The notes: generated by a model from the letters alone, not told the origin. A DNA stretch of 64,000 nt from Candidatus Omnitrophota bacterium (GCA_030698625.1 JAUYMS010000034.1:2835-66834), one strand, 5' to 3'. Counted from the stretch's first letter, positions 16,885 through 63,965 are shown. Numbers and translations: made by a program.

Positions 16885-16889
16885 GCCGG

Positions 16890-17933: not shown

Positions 17934-17968
17934 AACAACCTCCGAAAAGATTTTTTTATACTCATCCG

Positions 17969-19551: not shown

Positions 19552-19797
19552 CGGTAGGGCGGTATCTTAAACGGTGACAGCGCCTTATGCAAGCTTTTTA
19601 AGTCATTGATATGATTGAGTTTAGATCTATTTTCTCAGTTCGGCTCAGTATTTGTTGTGATTCTGCCGAAATACAGGACATGGAAATTCTAAAACTCTTC
19701 AAGAGAGAGAAGCAGGCGGCAGAGCGTCCTCAGGGTATTGCCTGGCCGAAGCCCACACAGCCGGTCGAAGGCGAACCCACCCTGCGCACCTAGCAGC

Positions 19798-20529: not shown

Positions 20530-20540
20530 GGATCGGGCCC

Positions 20541-26919: not shown

Positions 26920-27029
26920 CCAGCTAGCTCCCTTGTGAGTGAATGATTTCGTGGCATGCTGTCTGCAGGATACCAAAAAAATGGGCTGAGCGCTACAGCG
27001 AAACGGCGCGAACGGGATGTTCGCGTCAG

Positions 27030-27419
27030 CTAGGCAGCTTGTTTGCTGCTGAGGTAGTCGCGCACAATCGCGGCAATCTCGAACGGATTGACGGGCTTGA
27101 TGAAGTATCGCTCGCATCCCGCGTCAGATCCGTCTTGGAGGTCCTGCTCCATGCTCTTGGCAGTTAGAAAGAAGATGGGGATCTTACTCGTAGTTCGATC
27201 TTTACGAATTTTTTTGGCTGCCTCGAAACCCGTCATTACAGGCATCACGACATCCATGAGTATAAGATCGGGCTGCTTCAACTTGGCCAGACGAATGCCT
27301 TCCAGGCCATTGACGGCAACATCCAGCTCAATATTCTCGCTCTCAAAGGCCAACTGAGTGATATCGATGAGGTCAGCTTCATCCTCAACCAACAGGATAT
27401 GAGGCTTGGTCGAGCTCAT
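27030..27419 (-). CDS. Single-domain response regulator (CheY-like receiver)
   Basis: HILLVEDEADLIDI...PDLILMDVVMPVMTGFE...IPIFFLTAK: phospho-acceptor Asp and conserved Lys contexts. 4-nt ATGA overlap with the upstream kinase gene. Confidence 0.8.
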   Translation of the reverse strand: MSSTKPHILLVEDEADLIDITQLAFESENIELDVAVNGLEGIRLAKLKQPDLILMDVVMPVMTGFEAAKKIRKDRTTSKIPIFFLTAKSMEQDLQDGSDAGCERYFIKPVNPFEIAAIVRDYLSSKQAA

Positions 27420-53800: not shown

Positions 53801-56800
53801 TAGCTTGCGCCGCGAGCAGGCTGAGCGCAACGGCCGCCGCCCCCATAAGCACTGCAAGGCTGAAGGCGTATGCAATCTGCTGGCGATAAACGATGGCTAG
53901 CGTGACAAGCGTCGTCACAACAGCAACCGCCGCAACCGTCCCAAAAACCAGCGCAAGTCCGAGCGCAACACTGCCGAGTGTGAATCCGAGGATCGTGCCG
54001 ATGCCGGCAAGCACAAACGGTGCAAGCACTAAGGCGAGGATGATCTGTCCCGCACGGTCGCCGGTTAAGCCGAGCAACGAACCGATTTGAATGGCATACG
54101 GGATCACGGTCGCAAGAGTTGCAATGATGGCGATTGTTGCAATGGCATTAATCACACCGCCGACAACGAGACCTACGGCCGAGACCGCCAACACACCTGC
54201 CGCAACAACAGTTAAACCAATTCCAATTTGACGGCGGTACTTGACAGCAAGTTCGGTCAGGTTCGACGCACCTTCATATGCGAGAGCGGCGACGATAACG
54301 CTTATGATCCCAATCGCGATAGCCGCGCCGGCGCCATAACGCGCTAGCGTACGGCCGACGGGAGGCCCGTATCGAACGGCCAGGTCCTTCAATCCGACAA
54401 GCAGGTTGTAAGCAACGGAGAGACCCGCAATAACGGTAAACACACCGATAATGGCCCCGGCAACTGCTGCAAACACCAGGGCCTCGCCGATTTCGCTGCG
54501 ATAAGCGACGGCCACGATGACTAGCGCCGCAACTGCCGCAATCGCCAGGGTAACGCCGATCAGGATAACGGCACTCGCCACAAGGCTAACGCCCAACACA
54601 GCGTTCACACCGAGCAGCAGGCCGACGCCGGCCGCAAGTGCGGCTCCGGCAATACGAATTCGCTGTGCATTGGCCGCATAGAAGTTCGCGACGGCAGTCC
54701 CGGCAGATGAAAGCGCCGAAGTTATTGCAGTCGTAATCGTGCTGCCATAAGTACGAATCAACCAATTAATACCTGCCGCGACGGCAGCGACACCGGCAAT
54801 TGCAGCAAGGCCGAGAGCGGCATACAACCCCACCGTCAAGGCCAAGGCCGGTGCCAAGCCAATGCCGAGAATCGCGGCCACACTTGCAAGTACAATCCCG
54901 GTCGCAACACGATGACTCCACAGGAACTGGGCCACCCTGCCGATCACGCGACCGGTCGCCATAACGGTCTGGAAGATCAGATAAACAGCGGCGCCGAATA
55001 ACGCCGCGGCCAACGCAAAGGCACCGAAATACGCCAGTGATGCAAGAAAGCCGCCGGTCAGCGGAATAAGAGCAAATGCCGCACCGAATACGACGGCACT
55101 GAGCCCGAGGGCTATGGCGATCGCGCGGACCACCTGAGCTGTCTCGGATTCTCCTGCTTTTACCCAAGCGGTAATCGACGCAATAAAACCCCAGAGACCG
55201 GTCAATGCAGTCAGTGAGGCTTGCTGCAAAGTAGTGCTGAGTATGAGTCCGATAGCGATAAGAACGGCAGCCGCAACAGCGGCCCCGACCACACCGCCCA
55301 GGAAGAATGTCGCCGCTCCGCCTGCCGCAAGGACCAACGCGACAGCCGCGACGGCGCGCAGGTTCATACGGCTCAGGAATCCGCGCAATTTGCTGAAAGC
55401 AAAGTAAGTGGCCCCGAGGGCGAGAAACCCCGCGAGAACCATGTAGATCTGGTTGATGAAGGGCCTTATTTGGTCGGCACTTTCGGGGAGACCCGTATTT
55501 TGCCCTATACCTTGCGAATCAAGAAATACAAGAAGGAGAGCAGCCAGCGCAAGTCCGGCGATACCACCAGCGACAATCTTGACCATTTCTAGCAGTGCGG
55601 AGCCCCCACTCCCTGAACGAGCGCGCCGGCTCGGAGTCGTACGCCCGGAAGGCGCGACGGCGCCCGAATCAGACGGTGTCACGACCACGCCACCGTCATC
55701 CGGTGCTTCGAATGCGTCGGCACCAGATGCAATGGGCGGAGCAAAATCCGTAATGGGGGGGACAGCTTCGGCCTCATCGACTATCGGCGGTGCCGGCGCC
55801 GCTCTGCCAACGGGAACCGTTTTATCTGCCTCCGCAACAGGCAGGGCATTCAGTTCGGCCTGCGTCGACGCTGACCGCGACGTAGCATCCGCGGCGTCCT
55901 TCGTCATGCCTAACGCGGCGTAAAGCTGCGCTGCCTGACGGTAACTCTGTATGGCAAGTCTATACTCGGCCGCAGCCGCGGCATAATACGAGCCGGCATC
56001 CCTTGAATCAGCTCTCCTCGCGCGAAATTCAAAGTCCTTTGCCAAGGTATAATGCGAGTCTGCTTCGCCATACAGCGACTCCGCCTGAGCCGAAGCAGCG
56101 GCCATATCGGGCACTCCGGGTGTGACAGGCGCCGCCGGCGCAGACTGATCAGACGCACTTTCGACAATGGCCGCGCGAAATGCCTGCACAAGCGGCTGCG
56201 CATGGGTATAGCCGGTGTTGTACAAGTATGCAGCGTCACCTTCGAAAAATCGGGCATTCAGGCCCAGCGGCTTCCCATTCGCGCCCTGGGCTTGCTCGGG
56301 ATATTCAATGCCGGGCGCCGATATGCCCGCCTGCAGCACGACTGTGTCATTGACGCCATACGGAGTGATTGCTCCATCTGCGAGTTCCACATGCCCTTGC
56401 CAACTGATATCGTATTCGGCATTGTGGTGGAAGGAGTAAATAAGTTTGCCGTCCTTTGACTGAACGAGAACGGTGCGGACATCGCCTCCAAAGGCATCGT
56501 TATACCGCGTTTGATCGGACAGAATGCCGTTTTCGAAATCGGGCGCCGATCCTTCCTGCCGAACACCCTGTTCGGACGGGTTACTCGAATGATTGAATGC
56601 GACGTATTGACCCCCGTCCGCCAAGGTCGCCGCATACCCGGCCTGTTTGACCATGCTATCGACCACGCTCAACGGTATAAACAGGGCGGCATCGAGCGCA
56701 TCACCCAGGGTCGTTCCGTCAATGACTTCAAGACCGTCGAGGTAATCGCTCACGCCCGTGCGAAGTGTCTGCTGTGTTTCATGATGTCCCTTGCCGAGCC

Positions 56801-59800
56801 AGGTGACCTGCTCAGTATTTTCGGCGTCCCGAGCCAGATGCGAGGCGACCCGCCACTCGCTCTGGGAATTACTCTTATACGCGAGTCGGAGATTGACAGT
56901 GCCGTCAGCCTCGACGACATAGAGCACCACGGCCGCGCGTCCGTCGATCTTAGAAACCGAAAAGGCGTCGGAGGAATAGACCACCTTCCCGCCGATCGTG
57001 AACTTGTGTTTGGGGCCGAGACCCGCATCCTGAAGTCTCGCAAACACCTTATCTGCCGTGTTGTACTTGCCGTCTCGCGAAATGATGTGTTCAATCGGAA
57101 AGTAGGTCTGTCCCAGCTGCTCATCATTCGACAGGCGCAGGTTGCCGGAACTCACTTCCGGGGCTTCAGTCACAGCACCGTTCTGAACCACATTGCCGAT
57201 CCGAACGCCGCCGGTAGCCGCAGGTGCTTCCACCCGGGCGCCACGCCCTTCAGCACGCGCCTGCGCTTCATTGCGAGCCGCCAGCTCCTGCTGTTCAGCC
57301 GAATCGATCGTGGGCGCTCCTGAACGCAAGCGGCTGGCGGCGTCCCGCGCTTCCCTTCCCGCCGTATCCACCCTTGCCGCATCTGCCGTGTGGCCAAGCT
57401 CTTCATAACGACTTTGCGCATCGGCGAACAGGCGTGCCGCGATATCAAACTCCGCGGCCGCACCTACTGCTGACATAGATTGAAAATTAAGAGCAAAGGC
57501 GACCTTAACCTCGGCCTGCTCCTCGAGATCCCGGGCCTCATTTAACAACTTTGCCGAATCGGAGGCAGTGCGAGAGGCGTCCCCTTCCTGTTGCTTCAAC
57601 CCGGCTTCAGCGCGCGCTCTAAGTGTGCGGGCGTGATCGAGTCGTTCCTGGATCCGATCCTTTGATTGTCCGTAATTCTGTCCCAGGCCCGTCGCCAATG
57701 TCAACGCATCGCTAAGATCCGCCTCGGCACCCTGCGCATACGGCAGGGCCCGGGTAAAATCGCCCGCATCGATATTGCCTTCCGCCCATTCAATCCGCGC
57801 CTCGGCCCGTTCGATGTTATTGATGACGGCGCTAAGCGATGCTAAATCGCTGCTCAGTTTCCGTGCGGCAGCCTTCTGACGCCCGCTCGTCCTATTGACA
57901 AGGCGGCCCAATTGCTGCTGAAGATTTTTCAACGCAGCCTTCGCCGTCCGGAGCCGCTCTTCGGCCTTTCCGGAATCATCCGCCGCGGCGTAGGCGACAG
58001 CCTGCGCGACGGTCCGGACAATCTTAGCGTAGGTATCCTGCGCTTCAGTCAAGACGCCTTGAGCCCCTTCGCCTTCGCCAAGGTAGAGTTCCGCAGCTTG
58101 CTGACTGAGGCTGCGTGCGTTCACAGCAAGCGCGCCGAATCCGGCGTACCTCGCTGCATGCCGGTCAAACTCGCCGGCGGCATGGTTCAACTGCACTTGA
58201 GCCAGAGCGAAGGTACTGTCCCCCCGGCCTTCGACGGACTCACGGCCCAGGGAGTAACTGACGGCTGCCTCGGCAACTCGATTCGCGGCCTGTGCTTCAA
58301 TCGTATATTTATCCGCCTGAGCCTTGTCTGCCGTCTCCTCGGCAAGCTCGGTGAAAACAGCCGCGGCCTGCCTCAGCAGGGTTGCCGCTCTGACATAATT
58401 CGATTCCGTGTACGTGACCGTTCCGGCCGTCGAATCAGGCAAGCCGAGCAATTCGAGAGCGCTTTTCACAGTGCTGCGGGCGGCTCTGGCCCGTTGTGTC
58501 ACACTCTGCGATGGCGCCACCGTGCTCTGCAAGATTTCGCCTTCACGCCCGCGGCCGGTGAGGACGCGGAGGTTATTGGCGATATGCGAGGCGATGGCTG
58601 CGAGCAAGCCAAGAGGCCCTGCCCGGAGTACGCCCCGCGCCATGCGGCCGGCAAATTCCTTGTGGCGAAGTTGACGCTCATTTATGATTTCAGACACCGT
58701 TTGCGCTGCCGCACCAGTCACCGCACTCGCTCCGCTGCTTTTTACGATCTCTTCGGCAGCCCTGCGGTCTGCGCTCTTATGAGCCGCCGCAAATTCACGG
58801 TTGGCCTGGACAAAGGCGCGCAGCAGGGCGTTGCGAAAACCGTGACCTGCACGCAGATTCTGCACGAGCAATACGGCAGGCCGCCCAACGCGGAAATAGA
58901 GCTCTTCGGCGACGGGGACAACGAGACCGTTGACTAAAAGGTTCGCGGGTTTGGATGATATGAAGTCGAGGCCGGTCCCGATGAGCCGGCCGGCCGAACC
59001 GAAGATCGCGGCCAGGGCATTGAGCACGCCCTGCGCCAGGGCATTCAGGCGGCTGAGGAACCCGGGCCGGGCTTCAGCGGCCGTCGCCCGGTAGAGGCGG
59101 GTAATTTCGTCCCTTTTGCCCTCGATATCCTGGACCCGTTCGAATCCCGCCCGCGTCAATAGCCGTTCATACGCATTCGCGCGCCGGGATCCCGTGGTTT
59201 CCTTCTCGGCCCCGGCGGCCTCATCCACGACCCTCTCGCCGCGCTGGGCCGTCGAGAGGACGTCGATGCCGAGGGCCCCCAGGCCCCTCGCAGCGCCCAT
59301 GAGCTTGCGCGCGAAGTCAATCGAATCCTTGGAGGCATTGGCCGATATGCGGGTCAGAGAACCGCCCACTGTGAAGCCGATCTCCACATAGGAGTCCCTG
59401 ACATTCAGGCCTTTCGCGAGGGAGGCGTCTCTCCAGTTGATGATCAGGTCCTTCCCGTTCACACGGCCATAGGCATGAAAACTCACCGCCGTAATATATG
59501 CGAAACGCAGGCCCGGGAATTGCTCGTGCAGGAGCACCAGGGCCCGTTTGCCGTTTTCCGGCAGGCGGCTTGCGCCCGGCGCAATGGCTTCCAGACGGCG
59601 TCCAAACGCAAGTTCTATCGTGCTCGCGAGGCGCTCACCTTTGGCGGCAGTTCCGATAATGACACTCACATTATGGGCGATGTGCTTGCCAATCGCGGCT
59701 CCGAGTCCCAAGATACCAGAGCTCCCTGCAGCGGCGGCGAAATCTTTGGCAAGATTTTCATAGTATTTGAATTCTGCGCTATCCACCCGCGAAACATCGG

Positions 59801-62800
59801 GATGAGCCAGCGCAAACTGCCGGGCGGCTTCATTCTCCGCTTCATCCCGAGTCATCCCCTGCTCACGCTGCAACTTTGCCGGCAGGATACGGCGGAATGT
59901 AATTTCTTCGACTATCGGCACAATGAAACCGTTGACAACCAGATTTGCCGCCTTCGTGAGTGTTAAAACGTCGAGGATAGTGCCGACAACCTTCCCGGAA
60001 GTACCGAAGATCCCACCAAGCAAGTTTGCGAAGAAACTGCCGAAGCCGCCGACTGATGTGGCGGCGCGTCTTTCGGTCTCGGCCTGTTCGGCTTGGCCTG
60101 TGCGGTCGCGTTTCAAGGGTTCAATTTGGAATTCATCGAGGAGCGTTTGTGCGGCTACCTGGCCGAGAGAGCGGCCGAGACTGGCAAGAAGGATGTCGCT
60201 TCTGCCGGCCGCATCTAAATTCGGCAGGACTTCTTCAATTAAGGCGTTCACTTCGGGGGGTGCACGAGCCGCCTCGCTGCCCAGCACCCCTTGAGAAAGT
60301 GCGACACCGAGTAATTCCGCCAATCGCGCGGCGCGGTCGTTGCTGAGCTCCGCAAGAAAGGCTCGGACGAGTGCGGCCTTGCGGGTCTGCCCTTGACGCT
60401 CCAGGGACTGCGCCAGCACCGCAAGGACTTGCTCCAGGACCAGCCCGTTCAACTGCCGGCCGGCCAGCCTGTTCATATTAATGAGATTCGTAATAGCGTT
60501 GACGAACAGCTCGGCGAATGTCGCTTCCGCGGCCGTATTTGCGGTGCCCGAAACTGAAATCGCCAGCAGCTGGCTCAGGAATAATGCCGCTGATTCTTCG
60601 GCAGACGTTGCGCCCACGAGGCCGCTTTCGCGAACAAAATCTGCAGAACGCAAGGCCGTCAGGAAATTGACCGCCCGCTTCACACGCTCGGCACGGTCCT
60701 CCGCCTCATGACCCGTGTTAACTTCGTTGAGCAAGCCGGCAAAGACGTTGAGCACAACCGGCACAATCTGGGCCGCGGCCGCGGCATCGGCTTCCAGTCC
60801 CAGGCTCTGGGTCAGCATCTGCTGCAACAATTCATTCCGAATGACCACATCACCGCCGCGGGCCGCCTCCACCAGGATGTTCGCAAACGCGCGAACCTCG
60901 GCGGCCGTCAGATTAGACACACCGGCGAGAAGCGCCGCCGCTCCTTCAGCCGATATCTGCACAAACTGAATGGATCTTCCGTCTTCCGAGGCAATGCCGA
61001 GGAAGTTTCCGTTCTGAGCCGCCCACAGCGACAAGGCAAAGTTACCGCCGAGGACAAGGTCGATGTCTACAGCAATGGCCGGGATAGCCGAGGCATCGAC
61101 TATCGCGCCGTCGGTCAGATTGGTGTTTCCGATATTAAAACCCACGATCTGGAATCCCGCACCCTGCACCATATTCCGCAGCGCCTCGGAGCCGCGCACA
61201 AAGTTTGCTTCGCCTGAGACGATGAGGATCGGCACCGTATTGCCGGTCAGAAGAAGCCCCGACAATGCGACCCCATTGGCGGTCAAGTTGCGGAACTGAT
61301 TGAGGAACTGCGGCGAGCTAAGGTCTTCCTGATTCAGCACGAAGATCTGCGTCTCGCCCGTGAGATTATTAGAAATTTCAGAGCCGGTGATCGAAACCGG
61401 CGTCAGGGTTCCGATGACGGCACCGGCAATCTGATTGGCAAGCGCGGCATCTGCTGCGCCCAGCTGCGCTAATGCACCGACAAGAGCGGTCACGACACCA
61501 GCAACGCGTACGGCGTGTGCATTGTTGGTGACGGCAAGATTGGCGAACTGCGCCCCAAAGCTTGCAACCGTCGCGGCCGAAACACCGCGCACCCCGCTGA
61601 TCGCCAACACACTTTCAGAGATTGTCAAGGCAAGAGCACTGCCGGCCGCGTCTGTTCCCAAGAGGGTAAGGATATCGGCTGCGAAGGTCGCGCCTGCCGC
61701 AGCGTTAGTCACGGCAACCGCTGTGACCGCATCGGCGATCGCTACTGCCTGCGCTGAGTTCGTCTCGTTCAGGGTCATAAGGGCCGCGGCAAACCCGGCC
61801 TGTGTGGCCGCGCTCGCCGACGTATTGCCGAGAGCTGTGACGGCACGGCCGATCGACTGCGCAACCGCAGGCTGCGTTTCGGTCAAATCAAGCAACCGCG
61901 TCGCAAGATTTACGAGAGTGTCACCGGCAACGTTAGCTGCGGAGAGACTCGCGATAGCACCGGCCGTTGCAGAAGCAAGGGCCGGATTGCTGACAGACAG
62001 ATTGCTGAGGCGCAGGGCAGCGCTTGTGACGCGCGCGGCATTATTACCAGAAGCGAGCGCAATCGCGTTTACACTTTGTGAGATGGTCACGGCAAGGGTG
62101 AAACCGGCGGCGTCTGTACCAAGAAGCCTGAGTATATTGGTTGTGAATGACGCACCGGTGGCTGCATCGGCCGTGACGACGGCCGTAACCGCATCGGCGA
62201 TCGAGCGAGCAACCGCAGGCTGCGTTTCGCTCAGGCTGAGCAGCTGAGTCGCTAAACTCAGGACAACGCCGCCGGAAACATTGGTCCCGGCCAGAGCCGT
62301 AATAGCGCCTGCCGCCGCCAACGCAAGGGTCGGATTGTTGACGGCCAGGCTGCCGAGGATCAGGGCGGCATTCGTGACAATCGTCGCATTGTTATTAGAA
62401 GCACTTGCAATCGCAGTCAGGCTTCGGACCAGCGTCCGGGCGGCGGCCGTCTGATTGCTCACAAGCATGGCCGAAACGGGGAGGGCAATGGCATTGATCG
62501 CGAAGGTATTGAAGCCGGTCGCCGCGGCAAGCACTGAGATGCCGTGCGCGATATCCGCTGCCGCGGCCGCGTCCGTCCCCGCGAGAGTGACGATCCCGTT
62601 GACAAAATTCGTGACGGTCGTGCCGTCCAGCGAGATGTTGGCCGTAGCAACCGCTGTCACCGCATTGGCAATCGTAACCGCCAGCTCTGAGCTCGTCGCG
62701 TTTAGATCATTCAGGGTCATGATGTCCACGGCAAACCCGGCCTGTGTGGCGGCGCTCGCCGACGTATTCCCGAGAGCTGTCACCGCACTGCCGATCGACT

Positions 62801-63965
62801 GCGCAACCGCAGGCTGCGTTTCGGTCAAATCAAGCAACCGCGTCGCAAAATTCAACACGACACTGCCGGGAGCGTTGGTTCGGGCCAGAGACGTAATCGC
62901 ACCTGCCGTCGCGGAAGCAAGAGTCGGGTTGTTGACAGTCAGACTGCCGAGGCGCAGTGCAGCACTCGTAACGAGCGCCACATCATTATTTGAAACAGCC
63001 GCGATTACGGTCAAGCTGCGCAGTAACGTCCGGGCCGCGTTCACCTGATTCGCTTGATTGGTTGCAATCGCGGCGGAGACAGGCACGACAACGGCATTGA
63101 TCGCTACAGCATTGTTGCCGGTTACCTCGGCAAGCACCGAGATACCGTGCGCAATGTCGACTGCTGCAGCCGAGTCCGTCTTGGCGAGATTGACAATCCC
63201 GCTGGTAAAATTCATGACGGCCGTGCCGTCTAGTCCGGCATCGGCGCTGGCCTGCGCCACAATGGTGATTGCCGCAATCAGAGCATTCTTTGTGCCGTTA
63301 CCCAAGTCAATTGCCGGTATTTCTAGCAGTTGCGTGATCACGGCAATCATGCTGCCGCCGGTGATTTGGAGACTGCTCAGGGCACTGAATGCCTGAGTCA
63401 GGCCGGCAGCGAAATCCAGGCCGCCGCGAGTCGTGATCAGAGTCGAGACCTTGTCTGCAAGCGAAGTGATGGCGCCAGGCTGAACCTGGATACTGGCAGC
63501 TGCCAAGAGGGCATTCGAAAAGAGATCACGCGCCTGCCCGTGGCTGTTCACATCGATTCTGCTGAGGCTGCTCTCTAGCGTTTCCTGCAGGCCGCCTATC
63601 AAGGCCTGAAGATCCTGCACTGTCGTCAGTCCCTGGATATTGCCGATGACTGCGGCCAAGGCCTGTCCGAAAAGAACACCATGCCCCTGCGTCGCCCGAA
63701 TAATCAAATCCATAACCTGGAGGGCATCGGCCGATAGCATGCCTCTCCCCATCATGCCGGTCATCGACATCGCAAGACTGGTTCCAAAAGAGACATCGAT
63801 CGTTTCCTGCACCACAGCCAGCTTATCAATCAGACTCTGAAGTGTCCTTGCCTCGGTACCGGGGGTCGCCGCGGCACCGACCGCCCGCGACAACTCGCTG
63901 GCAAAAACAATATCCTGTCGGCTGGAGATGCGGATCGACGTCAAGCGATCCACGATACTGCGCAC
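29814..63965 (-). CDS. Giant mosaic membrane protein, 11,383 aa in window. The 5' end may extend beyond the right window edge: 63965 is only the first in-window start codon (GTG), and the frame stays open to nt 64000
   Basis: Single uninterrupted ORF in the six-frame track (34,152 nt). In-frame codons upstream of 63965 (...ITNLFANDTPA-V-RSIVD) contain no stop before the window edge, and the N-terminus MRSIVDRL... has no signal peptide. Motif-defined parts are listed as separate features. Confidence 0.85.
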   Translation of the reverse strand: MRSIVDRLTSIRISSRQDIVFASELSRAVGAAATPGTEARTLQSLIDKLAVVQETIDVSFGTSLAMSMTGMMGRGMLSADALQVMDLIIRATQGHGVLFGQALAAVIGNIQGLTTVQDLQALIGGLQETLESSLSRIDVNSHGQARDLFSNALLAAASIQVQPGAITSLADKVSTLITTRGGLDFAAGLTQAFSALSSLQITGGSMIAVITQLLEIPAIDLGNGTKNALIAAITIVAQASADAGLDGTAVMNFTSGIVNLAKTDSAAAVDIAHGISVLAEVTGNNAVAINAVVVPVSAAIATNQANQVNAARTLLRSLTVIAAVSNNDVALVTSAALRLGSLTVNNPTLASATAGAITSLARTNAPGSVVLNFATRLLDLTETQPAVAQSIGSAVTALGNTSASAATQAGFAVDIMTLNDLNATSSELAVTIANAVTAVATANISLDGTTVTNFVNGIVTLAGTDAAAAADIAHGISVLAAATGFNTFAINAIALPVSAMLVSNQTAAARTLVRSLTAIASASNNNATIVTNAALILGSLAVNNPTLALAAAGAITALAGTNVSGGVVLSLATQLLSLSETQPAVARSIADAVTAVVTADAATGASFTTNILRLLGTDAAGFTLAVTISQSVNAIALASGNNAARVTSAALRLSNLSVSNPALASATAGAIASLSAANVAGDTLVNLATRLLDLTETQPAVAQSIGRAVTALGNTSASAATQAGFAAALMTLNETNSAQAVAIADAVTAVAVTNAAAGATFAADILTLLGTDAAGSALALTISESVLAISGVRGVSAATVASFGAQFANLAVTNNAHAVRVAGVVTALVGALAQLGAADAALANQIAGAVIGTLTPVSITGSEISNNLTGETQIFVLNQEDLSSPQFLNQFRNLTANGVALSGLLLTGNTVPILIVSGEANFVRGSEALRNMVQGAGFQIVGFNIGNTNLTDGAIVDASAIPAIAVDIDLVLGGNFALSLWAAQNGNFLGIASEDGRSIQFVQISAEGAAALLAGVSNLTAAEVRAFANILVEAARGGDVVIRNELLQQMLTQSLGLEADAAAAAQIVPVVLNVFAGLLNEVNTGHEAEDRAERVKRAVNFLTALRSADFVRESGLVGATSAEESAALFLSQLLAISVSGTANTAAEATFAELFVNAITNLINMNRLAGRQLNGLVLEQVLAVLAQSLERQGQTRKAALVRAFLAELSNDRAARLAELLGVALSQGVLGSEAARAPPEVNALIEEVLPNLDAAGRSDILLASLGRSLGQVAAQTLLDEFQIEPLKRDRTGQAEQAETERRAATSVGGFGSFFANLLGGIFGTSGKVVGTILDVLTLTKAANLVVNGFIVPIVEEITFRRILPAKLQREQGMTRDEAENEAARQFALAHPDVSRVDSAEFKYYENLAKDFAAAAGSSGILGLGAAIGKHIAHNVSVIIGTAAKGERLASTIELAFGRRLEAIAPGASRLPENGKRALVLLHEQFPGLRFAYITAVSFHAYGRVNGKDLIINWRDASLAKGLNVRDSYVEIGFTVGGSLTRISANASKDSIDFARKLMGAARGLGALGIDVLSTAQRGERVVDEAAGAEKETTGSRRANAYERLLTRAGFERVQDIEGKRDEITRLYRATAAEARPGFLSRLNALAQGVLNALAAIFGSAGRLIGTGLDFISSKPANLLVNGLVVPVAEELYFRVGRPAVLLVQNLRAGHGFRNALLRAFVQANREFAAAHKSADRRAAEEIVKSSGASAVTGAAAQTVSEIINERQLRHKEFAGRMARGVLRAGPLGLLAAIASHIANNLRVLTGRGREGEILQSTVAPSQSVTQRARAARSTVKSALELLGLPDSTAGTVTYTESNYVRAATLLRQAAAVFTELAEETADKAQADKYTIEAQAANRVAEAAVSYSLGRESVEGRGDSTFALAQVQLNHAAGEFDRHAARYAGFGALAVNARSLSQQAAELYLGEGEGAQGVLTEAQDTYAKIVRTVAQAVAYAAADDSGKAEERLRTAKAALKNLQQQLGRLVNRTSGRQKAAARKLSSDLASLSAVINNIERAEARIEWAEGNIDAGDFTRALPYAQGAEADLSDALTLATGLGQNYGQSKDRIQERLDHARTLRARAEAGLKQQEGDASRTASDSAKLLNEARDLEEQAEVKVAFALNFQSMSAVGAAAEFDIAARLFADAQSRYEELGHTADAARVDTAGREARDAASRLRSGAPTIDSAEQQELAARNEAQARAEGRGARVEAPAATGGVRIGNVVQNGAVTEAPEVSSGNLRLSNDEQLGQTYFPIEHIISRDGKYNTADKVFARLQDAGLGPKHKFTIGGKVVYSSDAFSVSKIDGRAAVVLYVVEADGTVNLRLAYKSNSQSEWRVASHLARDAENTEQVTWLGKGHHETQQTLRTGVSDYLDGLEVIDGTTLGDALDAALFIPLSVVDSMVKQAGYAATLADGGQYVAFNHSSNPSEQGVRQEGSAPDFENGILSDQTRYNDAFGGDVRTVLVQSKDGKLIYSFHHNAEYDISWQGHVELADGAITPYGVNDTVVLQAGISAPGIEYPEQAQGANGKPLGLNARFFEGDAAYLYNTGYTHAQPLVQAFRAAIVESASDQSAPAAPVTPGVPDMAAASAQAESLYGEADSHYTLAKDFEFRARRADSRDAGSYYAAAAAEYRLAIQSYRQAAQLYAALGMTKDAADATSRSASTQAELNALPVAEADKTVPVGRAAPAPPIVDEAEAVPPITDFAPPIASGADAFEAPDDGGVVVTPSDSGAVAPSGRTTPSRRARSGSGGSALLEMVKIVAGGIAGLALAALLLVFLDSQGIGQNTGLPESADQIRPFINQIYMVLAGFLALGATYFAFSKLRGFLSRMNLRAVAAVALVLAAGGAATFFLGGVVGAAVAAAVLIAIGLILSTTLQQASLTALTGLWGFIASITAWVKAGESETAQVVRAIAIALGLSAVVFGAAFALIPLTGGFLASLAYFGAFALAAALFGAAVYLIFQTVMATGRVIGRVAQFLWSHRVATGIVLASVAAILGIGLAPALALTVGLYAALGLAAIAGVAAVAAGINWLIRTYGSTITTAITSALSSAGTAVANFYAANAQRIRIAGAALAAGVGLLLGVNAVLGVSLVASAVILIGVTLAIAAVAALVIVAVAYRSEIGEALVFAAVAGAIIGVFTVIAGLSVAYNLLVGLKDLAVRYGPPVGRTLARYGAGAAIAIGIISVIVAALAYEGASNLTELAVKYRRQIGIGLTVVAAGVLAVSAVGLVVGGVINAIATIAIIATLATVIPYAIQIGSLLGLTGDRAGQIILALVLAPFVLAGIGTILGFTLGSVALGLALVFGTVAAVAVVTTLVTLAIVYRQQIAYAFSLAVLMGAAAVALSLLAAQATFDKAVDIAVNYGRRIAIALVTAAVAAAVITSFTLVLGGILPGLVAAVIVSALVAAVLYVSDLFLFTQTITIPAFGETRPEETVLRIPINLRTLLRGFASSLGTAIRNRVASISPTRMLLVMGAAAAVVTALVLGVPALVALAGLIISGAAYTLTGIVLSFLGVALLLGMLGLAGWAISEVIPEGMYRFLTGRVSDQLAVTAGIALALALVFGLTVGVVAAAVLTAIIVAVLITRALAPPVIAVSTRIAAVARALNQAFENGKKGLIEWLAKTIAPAERTGKTLSSRIVDGLRWVLGTLGTQYFNIASVLAIAAGIVMFALLLPVLVPLVGGSMAIAVMLTIALAITAGLVAGGAVILVEWIALRLLVMLFSVPDAIRNGIRSARQDLADRLNRLISADEEAAAEASEPSTAAEIHAAKARARAAKAREHLVKGELTQAARELRAAYRHAGEVLNYAPAAEAVSLHATVLAELGALRVELATAAAAARAAIPVTAADLFVDGADFLNDIDEAFKRDAAARAKAQRLVEAADELLAKIDQLAALQARPRTAQTYRQMQQLRAQILGLYAETQTLQAELGVTANQANQFRAKAAAALSRVDTLDINAVRNNVSKFQELCGGGGCGETSHELAAIRAELAVEDAIRAGDRDALRTALQQQKQAHDAMIEGIKGSSLSEAQKQELADERADRVGHTFENVARSGIEIDADFAADLEALDATCSSCAVNFANRAAKGAPRDEAVHAAIEQVLDVARNRRETAEKEARGPDTERIQKLSASEAAVLSDAEFGVWAASRTADTYTAEQVGTAAELAEALVLRGDLDAARAVVSKLDALHKVTDITELKKTLRGLLKGTRAKALSEANQEFNTKLDAVINAINEQINKAGTRDTTVLDGLNATQAQAEELARGADLDLTKGIRAQGKLRALIAGIRSALKDEKITLQEAQALLAQAYRLGIEVNARVATNAAARAEAEGATIEGAERQLRLAGESLDEARSYLEILLKGGNLTDAELAGLLALVQAARDNLSEGRARLEARRTGIDLDAAPVTDEAIRLTEDDAHAAEDLSRRGASELAVLRALRDQYEAAADSQREAAAKFRGIYSSYLRGEGATYAQVQAARTALEAAVRNTETARNQFQAKYDALTLSFDTTGESNAHLALAGEGVLQEFRSEYVAVTAGDRTLQDHFSELAVRTAALQESLYASLAEGRELSELERREAENVAAHAGAALREGDESSTAAAAAFPVLTADTRGAGTNVLEGVTPTVSGSSLVTIDPATGTIVLDRRALGRVTDVLSARRQLLAELEDVFVSLGIGTDAEGMKRRRLIVTAILLQNRTIARLAALGHAVPNHLRIEILENAPHPADFEFATGTIRLDASLFSGQFSAGELSLLLGFFTGHELHHQELTAAGVAAADQEAIVINGDVERFKTLTPDQRAKLLAALAKLDGFGFLVTLSGSYRLLRDTNRFLNRRDPATRGTTKRSESKAKELEERRQRLHADLTVNRGAEVDERDVRVTASGGFIAKGRLNGQDAVWFFNENGDEVGFRTFAGRDADGLQEIGYSNYGENAQKAFLDNTGHIAGHRVNGFGRELKPGTDLFYLDGKVVVYVEDARTGIAFRAEFDADGNVLSTDEIVLTLDRRADVLESEFDAANGVLARIRAQLIAVDEQVKETESLLAARGSRASKVRLRATLNTLREEAKELLKKAKEAEGEIQKAGKALHDHFVEFREHVIGPQLKAGDELRNPLRQRELQIQNDRLSRRIRSLEGLVGENAKLTPDNPRSIELTDLVEGVEAAKEADAFDSKYLRIEENKDDIASFTERERLLQLKGDDAETSARAKKAIYLEQLAEFDIKVKLLLKALKNGKLSAADFDALPEPLRNRLAGVRDILFDTARSEAEKEAALRTLLRELVEQGKRGLYDDKGSVFLSSQEQAAVDTLNAVHELFNASDSLKQLLAAQLKALGNEYHKAKEIQGREIPNDIVFKFLVAGTIAQRHFNAAFDYSVRGIQLVEGAALIQGILSGIPTAQGKTGTLLFRNILKAFVGPTVAHLLHTEQAVSDDLLNENQAVYAAFGIETYGLKKNKMGRDTFKQAFSNKEQKPRVLYISISDYQFAYLEDQSSAPNDKNLSDDSYILSVDEIDAIFMILMRYINAEGGRSLAKKNVENFGTLLGFAQELVEQDLGIRTESATERTHEKWARTARRLLSRTEPGTLFVLEDSEGTDGRLSLRTTDEFSKKSKELYKKFVQRVESRGGNVQDFFAQLGLDNSNLLLSEEERKQLQNPDKAFEMLLRRSLEILLARRAGKDFGFKVAEDAKGDKIDESGTPVYEVRVMSNEGVSTQRESNFGGTILEAAFQSLVFDNGGVLKVEAESKTSGENDSLVVFEMKTRRFEDGSMDLSGSSGTVLASVKSIPSGSRDQAFIQTEDKAFLKLAAAFKIIASPEDYLNFDTHIRRARFINETKFTTAAEVDRVIADLVADAQKNYRTISRLFFKSPEQAQQAYRKYVKSYIANVKAQAEATLRANQTKLGLTDAEITAMLAELENLLQELSSKWGDATAKPALNNAVRRFFSNLRSRVRTDFDLLTALHGLEDLSLSAGRIYLLDGSQSDYGRKEGKDGGLLRGVVFASNNVSRGTNFVPPFASFSQSVKSGDRDKSVERSLRELLRQAGYSANEQTEQLEKLHHLQRLLLQDALRENLNDKTATVKLSEVLAGYSEAERQKVLDFINGLRSSVGLPVTDELTRDDVMKLLDKFSAETGNAAVAKAQATSGDARTSLLEKLGLESSATPQEIEAAYRTHVAEFFDKFSVSYAYGELGYAVGASRNLFDFEQAVARSGRNEAPGRVGEIYVNEWDVNEIVALGFENLPGTKADAASFALFKKTLAQYFALQQKVEAARAKGRDTTGLERKLDVKRAKLEALLSQARRNTTEATADRILIDHLPGKVEFNARAKESQKFSQFEGEQKNGAVSTTEYLASKGEAAYQQYQNGNTRVQFSVPADKSGSDADASGSQVVQENGQNFDFTYKDGQITGLKVGGVNYQLTDGKTLEIGNERYTVKLNYSRMSVTLTSEKQALNEYVIAGDRQTNGDREIKGFFKSRVERLRLGRKVQGNAQLLQRRLGRFLRGLGYLQEAKRLEAFRGTPAQIQQEYKKVVAGLGSAEDSYFSHRAVTSAVTQLFSDYRTRAQNSGQAAALSWLNGKLRALGWQFAIGREGSLETEVTAENASEVEAKLKAFGYRLVDAARVDDARRYANAQRIDKLNRIRGERTKTTGTPLFTEEGRDHDVAARRAEAYRLRLLAEEAVSEREYIDNLGRALINGAYEHSLKLEEQSEQKRRNLEVRGIHNAESRLENEFVSRIREEISNDKTLSEEAKQTLLADILNQFIADQDTLTDHALKARRAAQVLIAVRESGVPLNVSLKSIIGSEAETAARSVLNSCSSCAVEFRSLGREGSYLGVQGLQAALALGAVRERTVADALDQLKKAHPGLAADVADATAPKDLSKVGRALNRFRGRTGVIGGIAVAGALVAAAVSFFLAPFGVLLVAGIVFGAGLVLSVLPTLSSRLGLNWLIRNTIGRIMDLVGLGSFRARIQEAGAAGFSFLRTLALTGGLAAAFGSLIVAGILFAQVILAGTVLGLLVGVTAGYLGFSALQNRIGKRGAIAVVLLLGLAVIGAGAGAAVLLGLPLIPAILAAIGFNAAALVGNRATKIVATQTVVKGGLGNVLEGNRQAQLKTPAGELKVIRNVQYNNTVESVREYEPIVIRIAEDERAERAAPAVESTETEAGAATSVHTAEDVVIVERTDAGATVTVDTENTSSESTSRALSNAILALRELDRSAVCGGAGDCSDRRITVVIRQPGKPRIRLELNEDERRALIQNPEALLNRVDSLSVGRITSGGINFYGLRERTEAGNDGDLVVRAVYGQTYEQMVAADPMLQQLEQGHTAAAIEVSAELKSLKTQIDVERGKLRWVKADDGGFAFVHVDTFAEIDESVYISSGVVIQAQAKIGRNVRLEANSVVRRGATIKDGDRERPTVIGKNSVVGEGVVVGRRVQIGRNVRLRNREINPDKKKDDKDKFKQRTTIIGDDVTIGDDTTINGSTVLADIGSGYLIEDSYINAEDIEGIDLTQGAGDILSGINTSRLSRRQKESLRPAATLTDAAESGIDTALGQSKAALDRLPAAQRTRLAGVINGIARVRAAASSGDVGATRDALAALNQEVSHAAFTDVPASVRANLRKTNLALRSERRVIYRGALGIRAESYGDFFGAWTSILPERIRVPDTKVARFFFILRMLLRRGAEKVLDSILPDEWTAWYGQNRTDDQIKTEELFEQSLRQERAALAVIVTEGTERGVLDAARLVELRNDAREQVRELRRAKRNETLLKIGKVGLGLGLLGFILFNIGAAVIAGGSLLAMIVVPTVIVVGALAITGIVLFFGTRIKAFFSAAVEKIKFFFTSRVEKTKERLDRIDKEGKITHVTPLRRTLEIGLAAGLLAGGFFLGGAVLVSVSMIVAAVLAALLLISQFRAVRNIETYLLGFARSPLFWLALAGIGALLVFGLPAIATGLGLGFSFPLIGWLVTAFAAVKGALGTAATFALGKTVVGVLGSSYVWYPLVGVGSLVGLYKALSGYYTRSTLFDAEGNAKPPFVGAKFYLSYFFKGILLGLVDRHAEAKWLRSRIAALADDEATSLWTRARIALAPENNPSKETIDKYFALVRDREALNRVKKDQSLQKSVQERYQEKAKDSIQALVRKKKYGPSVLGDYQKYSNFQQNFDYLDKLKENEKDKDKLVQIEQQKKQLEHQLEEWEKDLSCAPACIADFKKTYATQKQSVKFFGEEIFEDLKKAADPLVAFQMEVLTAYKDRLTQIGLADKNTDLNKKDVREKLLSKNPIHTTLGHKEFLELTRKHNLEVADALNLIQGGWHLDEAAEFEAGLAIDSGGTAFKRFNKEVKRFRESSSPEALEERRNSVGFGEVFNEEDFWRDARAYNAALEKIKGEIQIAALMDGGRDPVGLAHKIDKLFEGLSEKITQERKNLADKVKAGESGFRDDETLVSDIDGSMGMGEAIFDHLRLDEKASVAAVIKIGRAVAAIRGVIAEREQEGRGRPSLRDIKSILNKFGVNLDHASDAGFAGLALDPLLQGLFAGVHDGILANDISIDDAFAIARGERTAWTNKLNLISQHLLGEDLFGTGTPLSLENLKRLYEARLAIVEQDALRADEAARLREGLAAILFHEASKLQEDGEERIQKMRRHKDKEDRIPAEQERLKNEVLAKLDAVAAAFPGYGKRIIEFRKRHGIAYTKADLEHFKSEIIRDADAILGNPAAPDEFKDILRVLIDHIRDLPIEIEPAADTPAFVRGGKIFFADWVLDDLLEGRYSGLVSQPDKGLIGYVSQHLLHEVIEYELNDFSEGVHDSYLNPFQRSKNISNFSLRARQLRASGNYVKAERVERMGRIISRVIDEGTVHGRTVASDDPFKMFRDYYAEYVASNFLKFQSREKQDATVQFYRALAMTRGEYVYRDKAAFKERIVNEPLDQDPFTRFLSGDTNAWEAYEEYFSTNVAYRWIFEFEEALQKGQVEEAKRVLDEKKKKSDEQRAKTGEPSISDPTFHYFNNLLAQSRSGRLVGSALEISRSNFERNRDITYTGFALADRERYTVEDNAVDYETKFEEHRRRRRTGDHPNRVADSFNRIRGDVLALVHSDAPDYDRTKHDRVYDRIKHLVPPAHRYQIEQAKATAEQAGLLSATHPDGLDGIKKKVSELGIPEGTSGAERRRLELERRRFLAEDTYRALVYFALQKLIIVSEPDAAKARETLLEVRKAFQDQTNKDLVSRSYDTSAKETRDFLLTRQDPTEDIHFDYQHLESDLEGAELIDRDGILVLKLKEDKFKEFMKRNGKGDSSDGAAIRFGHRAGFGTLVIVPEKKDKTKFPEGLNLRDLAHELGHARSQYLWENRQKQFADLDELLVLSQFPVMRDPLILGQQGMLSEIHSFVHETNGWRNNPSDNDTIYRSDGNLDEKELARHYRRTIIDGLRNYVNQFKLDPKKPEVQALFGKLETIADLLFTLQTRAGLDDAARDEFFRRFTAAVQKSDTLDNLIDGLLGMLSGDTVRAVKSSLGTLEDQAIRELPHLIDDVYEDEDIFYSLTDDKYPGQLKSVDKLRKKYDAIRKKLVSLLDLDIDDEFDRRALPEGIRMLLENVFSFMYTVQDETYENSRQDLETILRGFDPTRPGSEFVAELNDESRSALLARRNAERSSRDFGANLETAIDKVEEDFKKRHPGKTFDRDRERRSLERYHHLLSIGRTPRATPPAGASDEVRRQYQLHEPEVSIAIQDMVLDTIISETTRLEAEAVRLEGEGKAEDAAKVRRRADRLQDYEVKVDANGILYITFKATEGHERDAVTVVGGHMDVRPEIREGPLTTILGKDGVVRTDGTTALGADNRSGVGLALDAFDTVAGEERGEFRLVFTVGEEIGLGSKIADPEFFRDEKRQVVYVTADSQAGHKGFFRKGGSREQKGGKDFFGDKDPGIHTEIFHPDDAKGETIDKTEFAGLGKLVNEEGNKLGVDQAHVFRGVEKVGEGYSERVVTDEYGDFYHVRTHNPDIISFNFGDGGGDAARDGGREHSTDEASTLTHRSTQGEWLNAIVRNITQGRIVDDATASNVKKSFERLDNKIAGFSVTGFRLRNRTRKAQKKAIQAEIEQINAVPVDFNLNSNGKRDERARLLRTLVDRLRDGGVDPSLLAEFLPGTVRSELRVDSKLTAEGIGQIVFDSLIEGSFENDKVRRKFLAGFGADKAVSLSELLTATREFDSEYKEAKKELDVKRKTLNDLRSFEQGRVPKDIQKRAQSVAPDDRQAFLEEEHKALVERLGTKDLDLAEKKINEAEAMVKKNARKKGVIVGDGSLQIIELSDTEDVLDLLTGTDADFAFDVIQRKSDGRKFLVVGLKKSGLKLPAALTESSDFAVIDFVPKSERGRTALNSIQSKIDKLAAQLTGEESIDTEAYTTLKRSVEALKATRDRIAAEYKDVLGEEGNKKAVALAKTIDGLLATLKSEETLDAERTKKRISDRVAGLGSELEKLKSKLLASEPVQDDELPILLAQLLGLNTELDKLSGEVPTAIADAERKKLTAGIKQAQSKATNLATQLDSPADYRVYYDLEKRKAAATAEAANLNKAFEDLQKESYDSEGNFRSFETPEELAVFREELNNFKQQVDRALIEENRELLSPADQTKLQNAQAFLKDTLAATETPESALAYRQRGLDAGILRQLHIDTGQLGDSIYGRKGKAPAEDFDPAEALARTDEYLASVRDVQSRYVPTAETNEQDKEYADFAAPIERALQAHRDVLALIVEEEKLTLDKLRELNVEVGKFKELFERTDLELRSLSADALRERITNLKAIMNRAGIIAESLPQAKRDQEAAANLTFRVVKELLGHYYDEIFASERITVGRLGDIQAELALLIEDAKSLTPVIEAVAEDRRVAKFATDRDEFLAIAKGLNLTITNLLSGKKTLTDVRLDRFFEGLAKRLDGIDEILSGDEISDFQRAAALKDLKEVRERLRAVQSDPKYAKDLKHVGVLIEAGRLLSRVNELSQRSELRYIEDTSTNIEQALSRDLRKKLEVEQVEALQRIFDRTFPDHSELRDLVQGTNGVRISLEEFTGLNADAVAFFQKKQLEDRMQSIMGLNARKLLSVPEDDAVRDLRLWANHEFEHYHITERIDSIYAQLSGQLPQGTKVYDVLHEIFAYTQTLSDLEGILRSELRSEDLSVAQAERYAGLKLKVEFLLRMATGLTLDEIKKGVAADDFEGILLAILGVQAEVGGLTPLQKMLINAPVTQVVNADENFDVFLTGAEFQGAIWTEAAAFYGDAVRVAVTAAQLAGYSALPSAEAGNSTTLVSPDIDVGSALFAQVALGVVEKRWKGLLVKGVPGGVNPDSSLGRRLYRKARRDIEIALAVAMIGVEQVDKYYFFSTGKSKSEGGFGGILTDIDAFAAKLSKDILRDIEVAAAA
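30705..30719 (-). other. HExxH motif 3 (HEFEH) about 300 aa from the C-terminus
   Basis: AVRDLRLWANHEFEHYHITERIDSIYAQL. Confidence 0.2.
33880..34700 (-). other. MH-clan (M42/M20/M28-type) co-catalytic zinc aminopeptidase-like domain
   Basis: ILYITFKATEGHERDAVTVVGGHMDV (His ligand, nt ~34597-34612) ... TTALGADNRSGVGLALDAF (bridging Asp in the G-A-D-N-R-x-G box) ... RLVFTVGEEIGLGS (Glu-Glu catalytic/ligand pair) ... YGDFYHVRTHNPD (C-terminal His). Order and spacing match M42/M20 peptidases (e.g. GxDDRxG / TVQEEVGLRGA). Confidence 0.55.
35994..36008 (-). other. HExxH motif 2 (HELGH) in metalloprotease-like context
   Basis: KFPEGLNLRDLAHELGHARSQYLWENRQKQFADLDELLVL: an Ala-His-Glu-Leu-Gly-His-Ala core with downstream Glu candidates for a third ligand. 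Confidence 0.35.
39930..40690 (-). other. Transmembrane cluster 3 (~8-10 predicted TM helices)
   Basis: LLKIGKVGLGLGLLGFILFNIGAAVIAGGSLLAMIVVPTVIVVGALAITGIVLFF ... LAAGLLAGGFFLGGAVLVSVSMIVAAVLAALLLISQF ... WLALAGIGALLVFGLPAIATGLGLGFSFPLIGWLVTAFAAV. Confidence 0.55.
41470..41870 (-). other. Left-handed beta-helix / hexapeptide-repeat (bactofilin- or acyltransferase-like) block
   Basis: VYISSGVVIQAQAKIGRNVRLEANSVVRRGATIKDGDRERPTVIGKNSVVGEGVVVGRRVQIGRNVRLRN...TTIIGDDVTIGDDTTINGSTVLADIGSGYLIEDSYI shows hexapeptide [LIV]-G-x-x-x-x periodicity across ~130 aa. Confidence 0.45.
42700..43290 (-). other. Transmembrane cluster 2 (~8 predicted TM helices)
   Basis: GVIGGIAVAGALVAAAVSFFLAPFGVLLVAGIVFGAGLVLSVL...AIAVVLLLGLAVIGAGAGAAVLLGLPLIPAILAAIGFNAAALVG. 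Confidence 0.55.
45700..47850 (-). other. SecA-like DEAD motor / SF2-helicase-like ATPase module
   Basis: Four blocks in canonical order: (1) IAQRHFNAAFDYSVRGIQLVEGAALIQGILSGIPTAQGKTGT (nt ~47731-47830) vs SecA [30 protein letters not shown]; (2) VAHLLHTEQAVSDDLLNENQAVYAAFGIETYGL vs SecA [31 protein letters not shown]; (3) SYILSVDEIDAIFMIL (nt ~47391-47402) vs SecA HYALVDEVDSILIDEA; (4) GGLLRGVVFASNNVSRGTNFV (nt ~45901-45918) vs SecA motif V TIATNMAGRGTDIVL. Alignment is by eye, from memory of the E. coli SecA sequence. Confidence 0.4.
49605..49619 (-). other. HExxH motif 1 (HELHH)
   Basis: GQFSAGELSLLLGFFTGHELHHQELTAAG. Motif-level only. Confidence 0.25.
52650..55600 (-). other. Polytopic transmembrane cluster 1 (~950 aa, roughly 25-30 predicted TM helices)
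   Basis: From ALLEMVKIVAGGIAGLALAALLLVF to WIALRLLVMLFSVPDAIRNG the translation is almost entirely A/G/L/V/I stretches of 18-25 residues separated by short polar loops. Confidence 0.6.
58550..58950 (-). other. CPBP-like intramembrane metalloprotease-like module 2 (tandem duplicate of module 1)
   Basis: EELYFR (nt 58890-58907) ... FAAAH ... HIANN in the same order. The flanking sequence is parallel to module 1 (SKPANLLVNGLVVPVAEELYFR vs TKAANLVVNGFIVPIVEEITFRR). Confidence 0.5.
59600..60000 (-). other. CPBP (CAAX protease / Abi, PF02517-like) intramembrane metalloprotease-like module 1
   Basis: All three CPBP motifs occur in canonical order and spacing: EEITFRR (EExxxR, nt 59889-59909), FALAH (FxxxH, 59802-59816), HIAHN (HxxxN, 59670-59684). 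They lie in hydrophobic context (GGFGSFFANLLGGIFG...NLVVNGFIVPIVEEITFRRILP ... SSGILGLGAAIGKHIAHNVSVIIGTAA). Confidence 0.5.
61400..63400 (-). repeat. Intragenic repeat array in the 5' part of gene B (Ala/Thr/Asn/Val-rich protein repeats)
   Basis: Nucleotide blocks 61790-61910 and 62725-62850 are ~90% identical (caaacccggcctgtgtggc.gcgctcgccgacgtatt.ccgagagctgt.ac.gcac.gccgatcgactgcgcaaccgcaggctgcgtttcggtcaaatcaagcaaccgcgtcgcaa), offset 932 bp. A more diverged related copy lies at ~62170-62300. Protein repeats: NNPTLASATAGAITSLARTN...ATRLLDLTETQPAVAQSIG.AVTALGNTSASAATQAGFA occurs 3 times. Confidence 0.75.

Follow-up and report, generated by a model that had tools for sequence, protein, structure and literature searches.

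Two divergent CPBP-like modules inside a giant protein of a Candidatus Omnitrophota bacterium

In canonical CPBP proteases, the Rce1-like family of PF02517, a glutamate and the first of two histidines hold the attacking water, and the second histidine and an asparagine form the oxyanion hole. The domain consists of four transmembrane helices, TM4 to TM7, with an EExxxR motif in TM4, a water-bridging histidine in TM5 and an HxxxN motif in TM7 (PMC11980579). Every characterised member with intact motifs is an endopeptidase and is embedded in the membrane, and what is known of the catalytic mechanism comes for the most part from a single crystal structure, of an archaeal protein (PMC11980579). 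The subject of this paper is a tandem pair of modules resembling this domain, found within one giant protein of a Candidatus Omnitrophota bacterium. The DNA that was analysed is a stretch of 64,000 nucleotides (GCA_030698625.1 JAUYMS010000034.1:2835-66834), called the window from here on, and positions are counted from its first letter. An earlier sequence-only reading of this window had labelled the modules glutamate-zinc metalloproteases. That label is dated: current descriptions call these enzymes glutamic intramembrane endopeptidases (PMC11980579).

Not every protein with this fold is a protease. SpdC (also known as LyrA), LnsB and APH-1 are known or proposed to be non-proteolytic, and they are without the catalytic residues (PMC7387801).

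Giant bacterial genes form the other system to which this locus should be compared. They have been described as encoding numerous transmembrane regions and, for the greater part of them, divergent SecA DEAD domains (West-Roberts et al. 2023, 10.1101/2023.11.21.568195). It has been proposed that C39 and S8 peptidases embedded in giant proteins cut these into pieces (10.1101/2023.11.21.568195). A CAAX or CPBP domain is not mentioned in that work, in a 2026 Omnitrophota preprint or in a further giant-protein paper. The sequence-only reading had called a tandem CPBP pair in a giant protein unusual, and as far as this literature goes, it is.

The two modules are located in the N-terminal third of the giant protein. 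Its open reading frame (ORF) runs uninterrupted over 34 kb of the minus strand and encodes 11,383 amino acids (aa), with one terminal stop in the translation. The GC content by codon position is 0.65/0.44/0.65, similar to that of the neighbouring genes, so the ORF is native coding sequence. Plus-strand ORFs across the module interval have no Pfam match, and were rejected as genes. The features of this region are as follows:

29814..63965, minus strand: giant ORF ("gene B" of the sequence-only reading), host of both modules; from the ORF list, the translation and codon-position GC
59616..60080, minus strand: CPBP-like module 1, aa 1296-1450; from paralogy with module 2, PF02517, MrtJ and alignment to real CPBPs
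59892..59909, minus strand: module 1 motif 1, EEITFR, aa 1353-1358; E1353 aligns with the CPBP catalytic glutamate
59802..59816, minus strand: module 1 motif 2, FALAH, aa 1384-1388, in the hydrophilic helix TRDEAENEAARQFALAH; from translation and hydropathy
59670..59684, minus strand: module 1 HxxxN motif, HIAHN, aa 1428-1432; from translation and alignments to CPBPs
59079..59615, minus strand: inter-module segment, aa 1451-1629, no recognisable domain by Pfam search and BLASTP
58521..59078, minus strand: CPBP-like module 2, aa 1630-1815, with a 25-residue insertion preceding the last helix; from paralogy and PF02517
58890..58907, minus strand: module 2 motif 1, EELYFR, aa 1687-1692; regular expression on the translation
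58779..58793, minus strand: module 2 motif 2, FAAAH, aa 1725-1729; regular expression on the translation
58572..58586, minus strand: module 2 HxxxN motif, HIANN, aa 1794-1798; regular expression on the translation

It had been claimed that two EExxxR, FxxxH and HxxxN triads lie some 330 aa apart. The regular expression search confirms this, with the second set beginning 334 aa after the first. The modules had also been described as parallel in order, spacing and flanking sequence. Order and flanks are indeed shared: both modules have NLxVNGxxVPxxEE upstream and VxxGxxxxGExLxST downstream. As for spacing, the 31 and 40 residues of module 1 are canonical, and the distances in module 2 are greater. 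One more EExx[FYW]R occurs at aa 8360, without partner motifs. The pattern EE...R-(20-45)-F...H-(30-75)-H...[ND] is seen twice in the giant protein, compared to 0.0025 times per shuffle over 2000 composition-preserving shuffles of the whole protein, and 0/2000 shuffles had two occurrences. The two triads should not be counted as independent events, because the modules are paralogues.

This paralogy is clear from direct comparison. BLASTP of aa 1280-1625 against aa 1620-1960 delivers 31% identity over 195 columns (E 3e-19), and MAFFT arrives at 37%. Each module is roughly 160-190 aa long. Together with a third copy in a relative described below, pairwise identities are 36-41%, which means that the duplication is old. 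A hidden Markov model (HMM) of the module found no further or degenerate copies in the giant protein or in either of its two relatives. Judged by their sequences, modules 1 and 2 are ancient paralogues of one highly divergent domain.

For each module on its own, PF02517 is the top Pfam family: module 1 has E 6.8e-4 and 20.3 bits over profile positions 5-35 of 93, and module 2 has E 0.004 and 17.9 bits over positions 5-25. The gathering score of the family is 22.4 bits, and a 1000-aa query holding both modules reaches 27.8 bits, above this score. The best NCBIfam match for module 1 is the CPBP protease MrtJ (E 0.023), from the EE pair to FALAH. A PF02517 search had been suggested as a check on the sequence-only reading. 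It does put this family on top for both modules, at a marginal score and for motif 1 only.

Comparison on the level of profiles goes further. For this, four real PF02517 proteins (P0004-P0007) were used, retrieved independently with a CPBP consensus query, where membership of the family is by database annotation. With default settings, hhalign of the three-module profile against these four has P 6e-4, with motifs 1 and 2 aligned. In a second run P is 1.5e-4, and the 101 aligned columns bring each of the three motifs into register. The hhalign score is 31.7, while 200 column-shuffled CPBP alignments have a mean of 10.8, a standard deviation of 2.2 and a maximum of 22.1, and a reversed alignment scores 8.1. 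In an unguided MAFFT alignment of the seven sequences (three modules and four CPBPs), F62, F89, H93, H133 and N137 are invariant. The first of these is the phenylalanine of EExxFR, the next two are F and H in FxxxH, and the last two belong to HxxxN. Finally, an HMM made from only the four real CPBPs ranks modules 1 and 2 first among 263 tiles of three giant proteins (~26,000 residues).

All this makes it likely that the modules share ancestry with CPBP, if remotely. Of the claim that they are CPBPs, the relatedness therefore stands, through the top PF02517 match and the in-register profile alignment. Typical, membrane-embedded CPBPs they are not. As in the CPBP/Rce1 proteins MmRce1 (4CAD), MrtX myxosortase and MrtJ, EExxxR, FxxxH and HxxxN come in the same order, the spacing of module 1 is identical and there would be a four-helix core. 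Unlike in these proteins, helix 2, which bears a motif, and helix 3 are hydrophilic, and the LGxxLG of the third helix is reduced to A..G. The known proteins are a few hundred residues long (MrtX has 239 aa), whereas here a tandem pair sits within 11,383 aa. The module scores are at or below the family threshold, and there is an additional conserved tail.

This tail, V.V[IL].G....G[ET].L.S[TA], follows right after the HxxxN helix in all three modules and has no counterpart in the canonical CPBPs that were aligned. It might be a structural element peculiar to these modules, or else a segment for recognition or cleavage:

58521-58565 and 59616-59660, minus strand, and aa ~2525-2539 of the relative: conserved tails; from alignments

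The inter-module segment of about 180 aa resembles a small globular domain. It has no Pfam match even at E 10, and by BLASTP it has no counterpart following module 2 and no match in the relative.

Relatives are rare. An exhaustive HMMER scan of 1.84 billion representative proteins with the two-module profile had three matches, of which two (P0001 and P0003) were rejected as repeat-protein artefacts. The one real relative is MBI4168028.1, here called P0002, a "hypothetical protein, partial" of 7,895 aa that forms a singleton cluster. Its contig of 23.7 kb (JACQNY010000098.1) is one ORF from end to end and comes from a groundwater metagenome-assembled genome labelled Candidatus Aenigmarchaeota. 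P0002 is colinear with the window protein over the module, the SecA_DEAD region (30% identity over 712 columns), the hexapeptide domain and a conserved block at the C-terminus. It differs in being a fragment, in having one module and not two, and in lacking a large transmembrane cluster between module and ATPase.

The P0002 module reads VPVFETIWFQ...FADAH...HIRNN. In its motif 1, ETIWFQ, the second glutamate and the arginine have been replaced. The first glutamate, F...H and H...N are kept in all three copies, even though these differ at some 60-64% of aligned positions. It thus appears from the alignments that the catalytic set survived the replacement of about 60% of positions per lineage.

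Although P0002 is binned as Aenigmarchaeota, the window protein with which it is colinear belongs to a bacterium, judging by the PEP-CTERM, RecN and LysM-amidase genes of that genome. Possibly the contig was misbinned, or the family occurs in more than one domain of life.

A further partial relative, metagenome contig Ga0187893_10001708, was found with an alignment of the helicase region, and shares the helicase and C-terminal blocks with the window protein. No module is seen in the 3,253 aa that precede its helicase region; the contig continues for another 12 kb in that direction. When metagenome and viral contigs were scanned with the module alignment there was no further match, and a viral scan with the helicase alignment was likewise empty. 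A word-indexed homologue search with aa 1290-1830 and aa 8457-9116 found none among the best 8000 candidates. This is a weak negative, as such searching is unreliable for this alanine-rich protein: it missed P0002 and also a 4,094-aa C-terminal fragment of the giant protein that is called on Logan contig SRR13727534_43213.

A further difference with real CPBPs is in hydrophobicity. In the three copies, the best 19-residue Kyte-Doolittle window of the FxxxH helix lies between -0.23 and 0.16, where real CPBPs have 1.4-2.3. The next helix is hydrophilic too, and both contain many charged residues. Over helices 2 and 3, the mean Eisenberg hydrophobicity is -0.40 to 0.09 in the modules versus 0.35-0.71 in real CPBPs. 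The helix before and through the EE pair and the HxxxN helix are moderately hydrophobic, with 19-residue Kyte-Doolittle windows of 1.2-1.6. By hydropathy, then, the catalytic motifs do not all lie within transmembrane helices, as they do in TM4, TM5 and TM7 of CPBPs. The sequence-only reading had held that motifs outside the membrane would speak against it. Half of this is what is found: two of the helices (2 and 3) are hydrophilic, and the other two (1 and 4) moderately hydrophobic.

Real transmembrane regions are easy to recognise in the same protein. There are some 35 segments with a Kyte-Doolittle hydropathy of at least 2.0, in three clusters (aa 2797-3761, 6923-7064 and 7764-7972). The first of these is:

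52683..55577, minus strand: about 25 strongly hydrophobic segments, aa 2797-3761, a real transmembrane region; from hydropathy

With such clear clusters available, the contrast with the modules is seen within one and the same protein, and does not depend on the scale used. AT skew is +0.18 and +0.25 at 52001-56000 and nowhere else in the window, which coincides with the cluster at aa 2797-3761. This skew probably comes from the hydrophobic residues, whose codons on the coding (minus) strand are rich in T at the second position.

On which side of the membrane the modules are cannot be deduced from the window protein, because about 25 hydrophobic segments separate them from the SecA_DEAD domain. 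P0002 is more informative. It has no hydrophobic segment between its module (aa 2394-2539) and SecA_DEAD (aa 3514-3720), and the module is at least about 640 aa away from the nearest hydrophobic segment on either side. Module and ATP-dependent SecA_DEAD should therefore be on one side, and since an ATPase has to be in contact with the cytoplasm, this is most likely where the module is as well. By the same sequence argument, the modules of the window protein are most likely on the cytoplasmic side. Their active site is probably located in a helical bundle that is solvent-exposed, or at most membrane-peripheral.

Structure prediction was done with two alignments. When the four real CPBPs were added to the three modules, AlphaFold reached a predicted local distance difference test score (pLDDT) of 65.8, with 70-94 over the motif 1 and motif 2 helices and 70-78 over the last helix. 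Foldseek had no match for this model. It is compatible with a CPBP fold, but is not independent proof of one, because its alignment contained CPBPs.

The preferred explanation, which we consider about evenly balanced between right and wrong, is that these are catalytically competent, solvent-exposed glutamic endopeptidase modules derived from CPBP, in a giant protein of the SecA-DEAD type. They would probably be cytoplasmic and act on the giant protein itself or on a partner. The domain would derive from the CPBP/Rce1-like fold, and its core would be four helices, of which helices 1, 2 and 4 carry EExxxR, FxxxH and HxxxN respectively. On helices 2 and 3, charged residues would have taken the place of the lipid-facing surfaces, while all catalytic residues were kept. 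The active site would then no longer be buried in lipid. Its most likely activity would be endoproteolysis of the giant polypeptide, in cis, or of a partner. That the full catalytic set is retained is an argument for catalysis, given that the non-proteolytic proteins SpdC, LnsB and APH-1 have lost it. Cis-processing would be plausible, and such cleavage has a precedent in the peptidase domains proposed to cut giant proteins (10.1101/2023.11.21.568195).

Several observations weigh against this explanation. Singly, both modules fall short of the PF02517 gathering score (20.3 and 17.9 against 22.4 bits), the PF02517 alignment is limited to the EExxxR helix, about 30 residues, and the match is lost when a 4000-aa chunk of the giant protein is scanned. 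The P0002 module alone matches nothing in a scan with curated models. The exhaustive scan with the module profile retrieved no canonical CPBP at E 1e-3, and a profile search of PDB sequences had no CPBP match either. From the three-module alignment, AlphaFold produces a model with a pLDDT of 47 for which Foldseek again has no match. In addition, hydropathy scales are a crude measure of topology, and the module family is known from two sequenced carriers only. Short matches near threshold, the empty exhaustive scan, the missing structural match and the shortness of the motifs would also fit a helical bundle unrelated to CPBP, possibly metal-binding through the glutamate and two histidines, and alike by convergence or chance. 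Such an origin is improbable: order-dependent profile similarity far exceeds the shuffled controls, the three motifs are in register with two aligners (hhalign and MAFFT) at the canonical spacing in module 1, and the CPBP-only HMM singles out exactly these two modules from ~26,000 giant-protein residues.

If the modules were ordinary intramembrane CPBPs, as the sequence-only reading assumed, with all helices buried in the membrane or in the large transmembrane assembly of the giant protein itself, they would cleave membrane-anchored substrates there. The moderately hydrophobic EE and HxxxN helices agree with this, the roughly 35 strongly hydrophobic segments of the giant protein could shield the polar helices, and the characterised CPBPs cited are all membrane-embedded (PMC11980579). 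The high charge of the motif 2 helix (TRDEAENEAARQFALAH) and of the next one, with the Eisenberg values to match, the recurrence of hydrophilic helices 2 and 3 in all three copies, and the distance of the P0002 module from any hydrophobic segment make this a poor prospect. Somewhat less improbable, yet still unlikely, is a pseudo-enzyme or scaffold: a CPBP fold that does not cleave, and instead presents substrates or binds proteins, as has been proposed for APH-1, SpdC/LyrA and LnsB. The documented non-proteolytic members have lost their catalytic residues (PMC7387801). They are also integral membrane proteins, whereas the window modules are too little hydrophobic to span the membrane throughout, and keep E, H, H and N. 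The first glutamate, both histidines and the asparagine are invariant across three otherwise widely diverged copies, and histidine is rare in the giant protein (1.2% overall). It is also conceivable, with little in its favour, that the glutamate/histidine site has been reused for another hydrolytic or transfer reaction, in concert with acyltransferase-like and peptidase-like domains. An LpxD-like hexapeptide acyltransferase domain and an M20-like segment are indeed on the same polypeptide, and the CPBP relative LnsB takes part in an acyl-transfer system (PMC7387801). LnsB however does not have the catalytic motifs and is regarded as non-catalytic (PMC7387801), all characterised members with intact motifs are endopeptidases (PMC11980579), and the two domains in question are thousands of residues away from the modules.

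The recognisable domains elsewhere in the giant protein are these:

47379..48032, minus strand: SecA DEAD-like ATPase, aa ~5312-5529, part of a region (aa 5356-6033) conserved with P0002 and the Ga0187893_10001708 protein; PF07517, E 1.8e-11
41415..41879, minus strand: left-handed beta-helix (hexapeptide) acyltransferase-like domain, aa ~7363-7517; PF00132, E 8e-15, and LpxD-like PDB chains
34374..34628, minus strand: weak M20 / peptidase-T-like segment, aa ~9780-9864; PF01546, E 0.042, and 3rza_A, E 1.1e-5

This protein shares several traits with the class of West-Roberts et al.: one ORF encodes over 10,000 aa, and there are some 35 strongly hydrophobic segments, a divergent SecA_DEAD domain and scattered enzyme domains. 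Unlike in that class, domain scans of the giant protein found no HEAT, glycosyltransferase or dockerin domains.

The part upstream of the modules, aa 1-1290 (60096-63965, minus strand), has a peculiar composition. Alanine makes up 19.8%, leucine 12.5%, valine 9%, threonine 8.6% and asparagine 6.4%. Lysine (0.5%), histidine (0.5%) and tyrosine (0.0%) are depleted, and there are 0 cysteines. There are several segments rich in alanine and valine with borderline hydrophobicity. This part has no Pfam or PDB sequence match, and its start does not resemble a signal peptide.

The whole protein has only 10 cysteines in 11,383 aa, all closely paired, between aa 4005 and 8199 (39368-51953, minus strand). 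The pairs are C4005/C4010, C4106/C4109, C6821/C6824, C7223/C7229 and C8195/C8199, and the pairs at 4106 and 6821 share CSSCAV. This suggests a few metal-binding or redox sites.

Downstream, the neighbours of the giant gene are a cold-shock protein, a response regulator with histidine kinase, a transaldolase-phosphoglucose isomerase fusion, a LysM amidase and RecN. Beyond these chromosomal housekeeping and signalling genes lie PEP-CTERM proteins and a group with TPR, FecR and CHASE2-SpoIIE domains:

20541-21236 and 14000-14830, minus strand: PEP-CTERM genes; from the domain scan

The sequence-only reading had offered a link of the modules to PEP-CTERM/exosortase machinery, and this did not hold up. 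The two PEP-CTERM genes are located 9-16 kb past the 3' end of the giant gene, with the two-component system, the transaldolase-phosphoglucose isomerase fusion, the amidase and RecN in between. At its C-terminus, the giant protein lacks a PEP motif, a transmembrane helix and a basic tail, there is no PF07589 match anywhere in it, and no exosortase domain was detected in the 20 neighbouring ORFs scanned. The PEP-CTERM genes at 14000-21236 (minus strand) flank the CHASE2-SpoIIE phosphatase, a FecR-domain protein and a TPR protein, and this may be a surface or signalling cluster.

The fusion of transaldolase (PF00923) and phosphoglucose isomerase (PF00342) at 24073-27117 (minus strand) is 1,014 aa long. 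The Logan assembly calls a product of 948 aa, so the start codons differ. At the left of the window, 1-13300 (plus strand) contains eight ORFs of 170-350 aa that match neither Pfam nor PHROG families. The idea that this unannotated part derives from a phage or mobile element was dropped, as there is no PHROG support. GC content is 0.47 in the first 2 kb, compared to 0.52-0.61 elsewhere; for the source organism it is about 57%. Searching plasmids by tblastn, with a CPBP consensus and with module 1, yielded nothing useful.

A bolder and decidedly tentative version of the preferred explanation is that an intramembrane protease fold has left the membrane by exchanging the lipid-facing surface of two of its four core helices, with the Glu/His/His/Asn catalytic set kept, and now serves as a tandem cytoplasmic cis-processing pair, the task of which is to divide a giant polyprotein of the SecA-DEAD type into working parts. 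Real solvent exposure would be surprising for CPBP/Rce1, which in the literature considered are otherwise integral membrane proteins; the case for it rests on two carriers and a remote homology. If true, it would show the fold of an intramembrane protease to be capable of leaving the lipid, and it would potentially provide the CPBP family with a soluble model enzyme. It would also offer a concrete candidate for how giant bacterial polyproteins are processed, a question that giant-protein papers raise explicitly.

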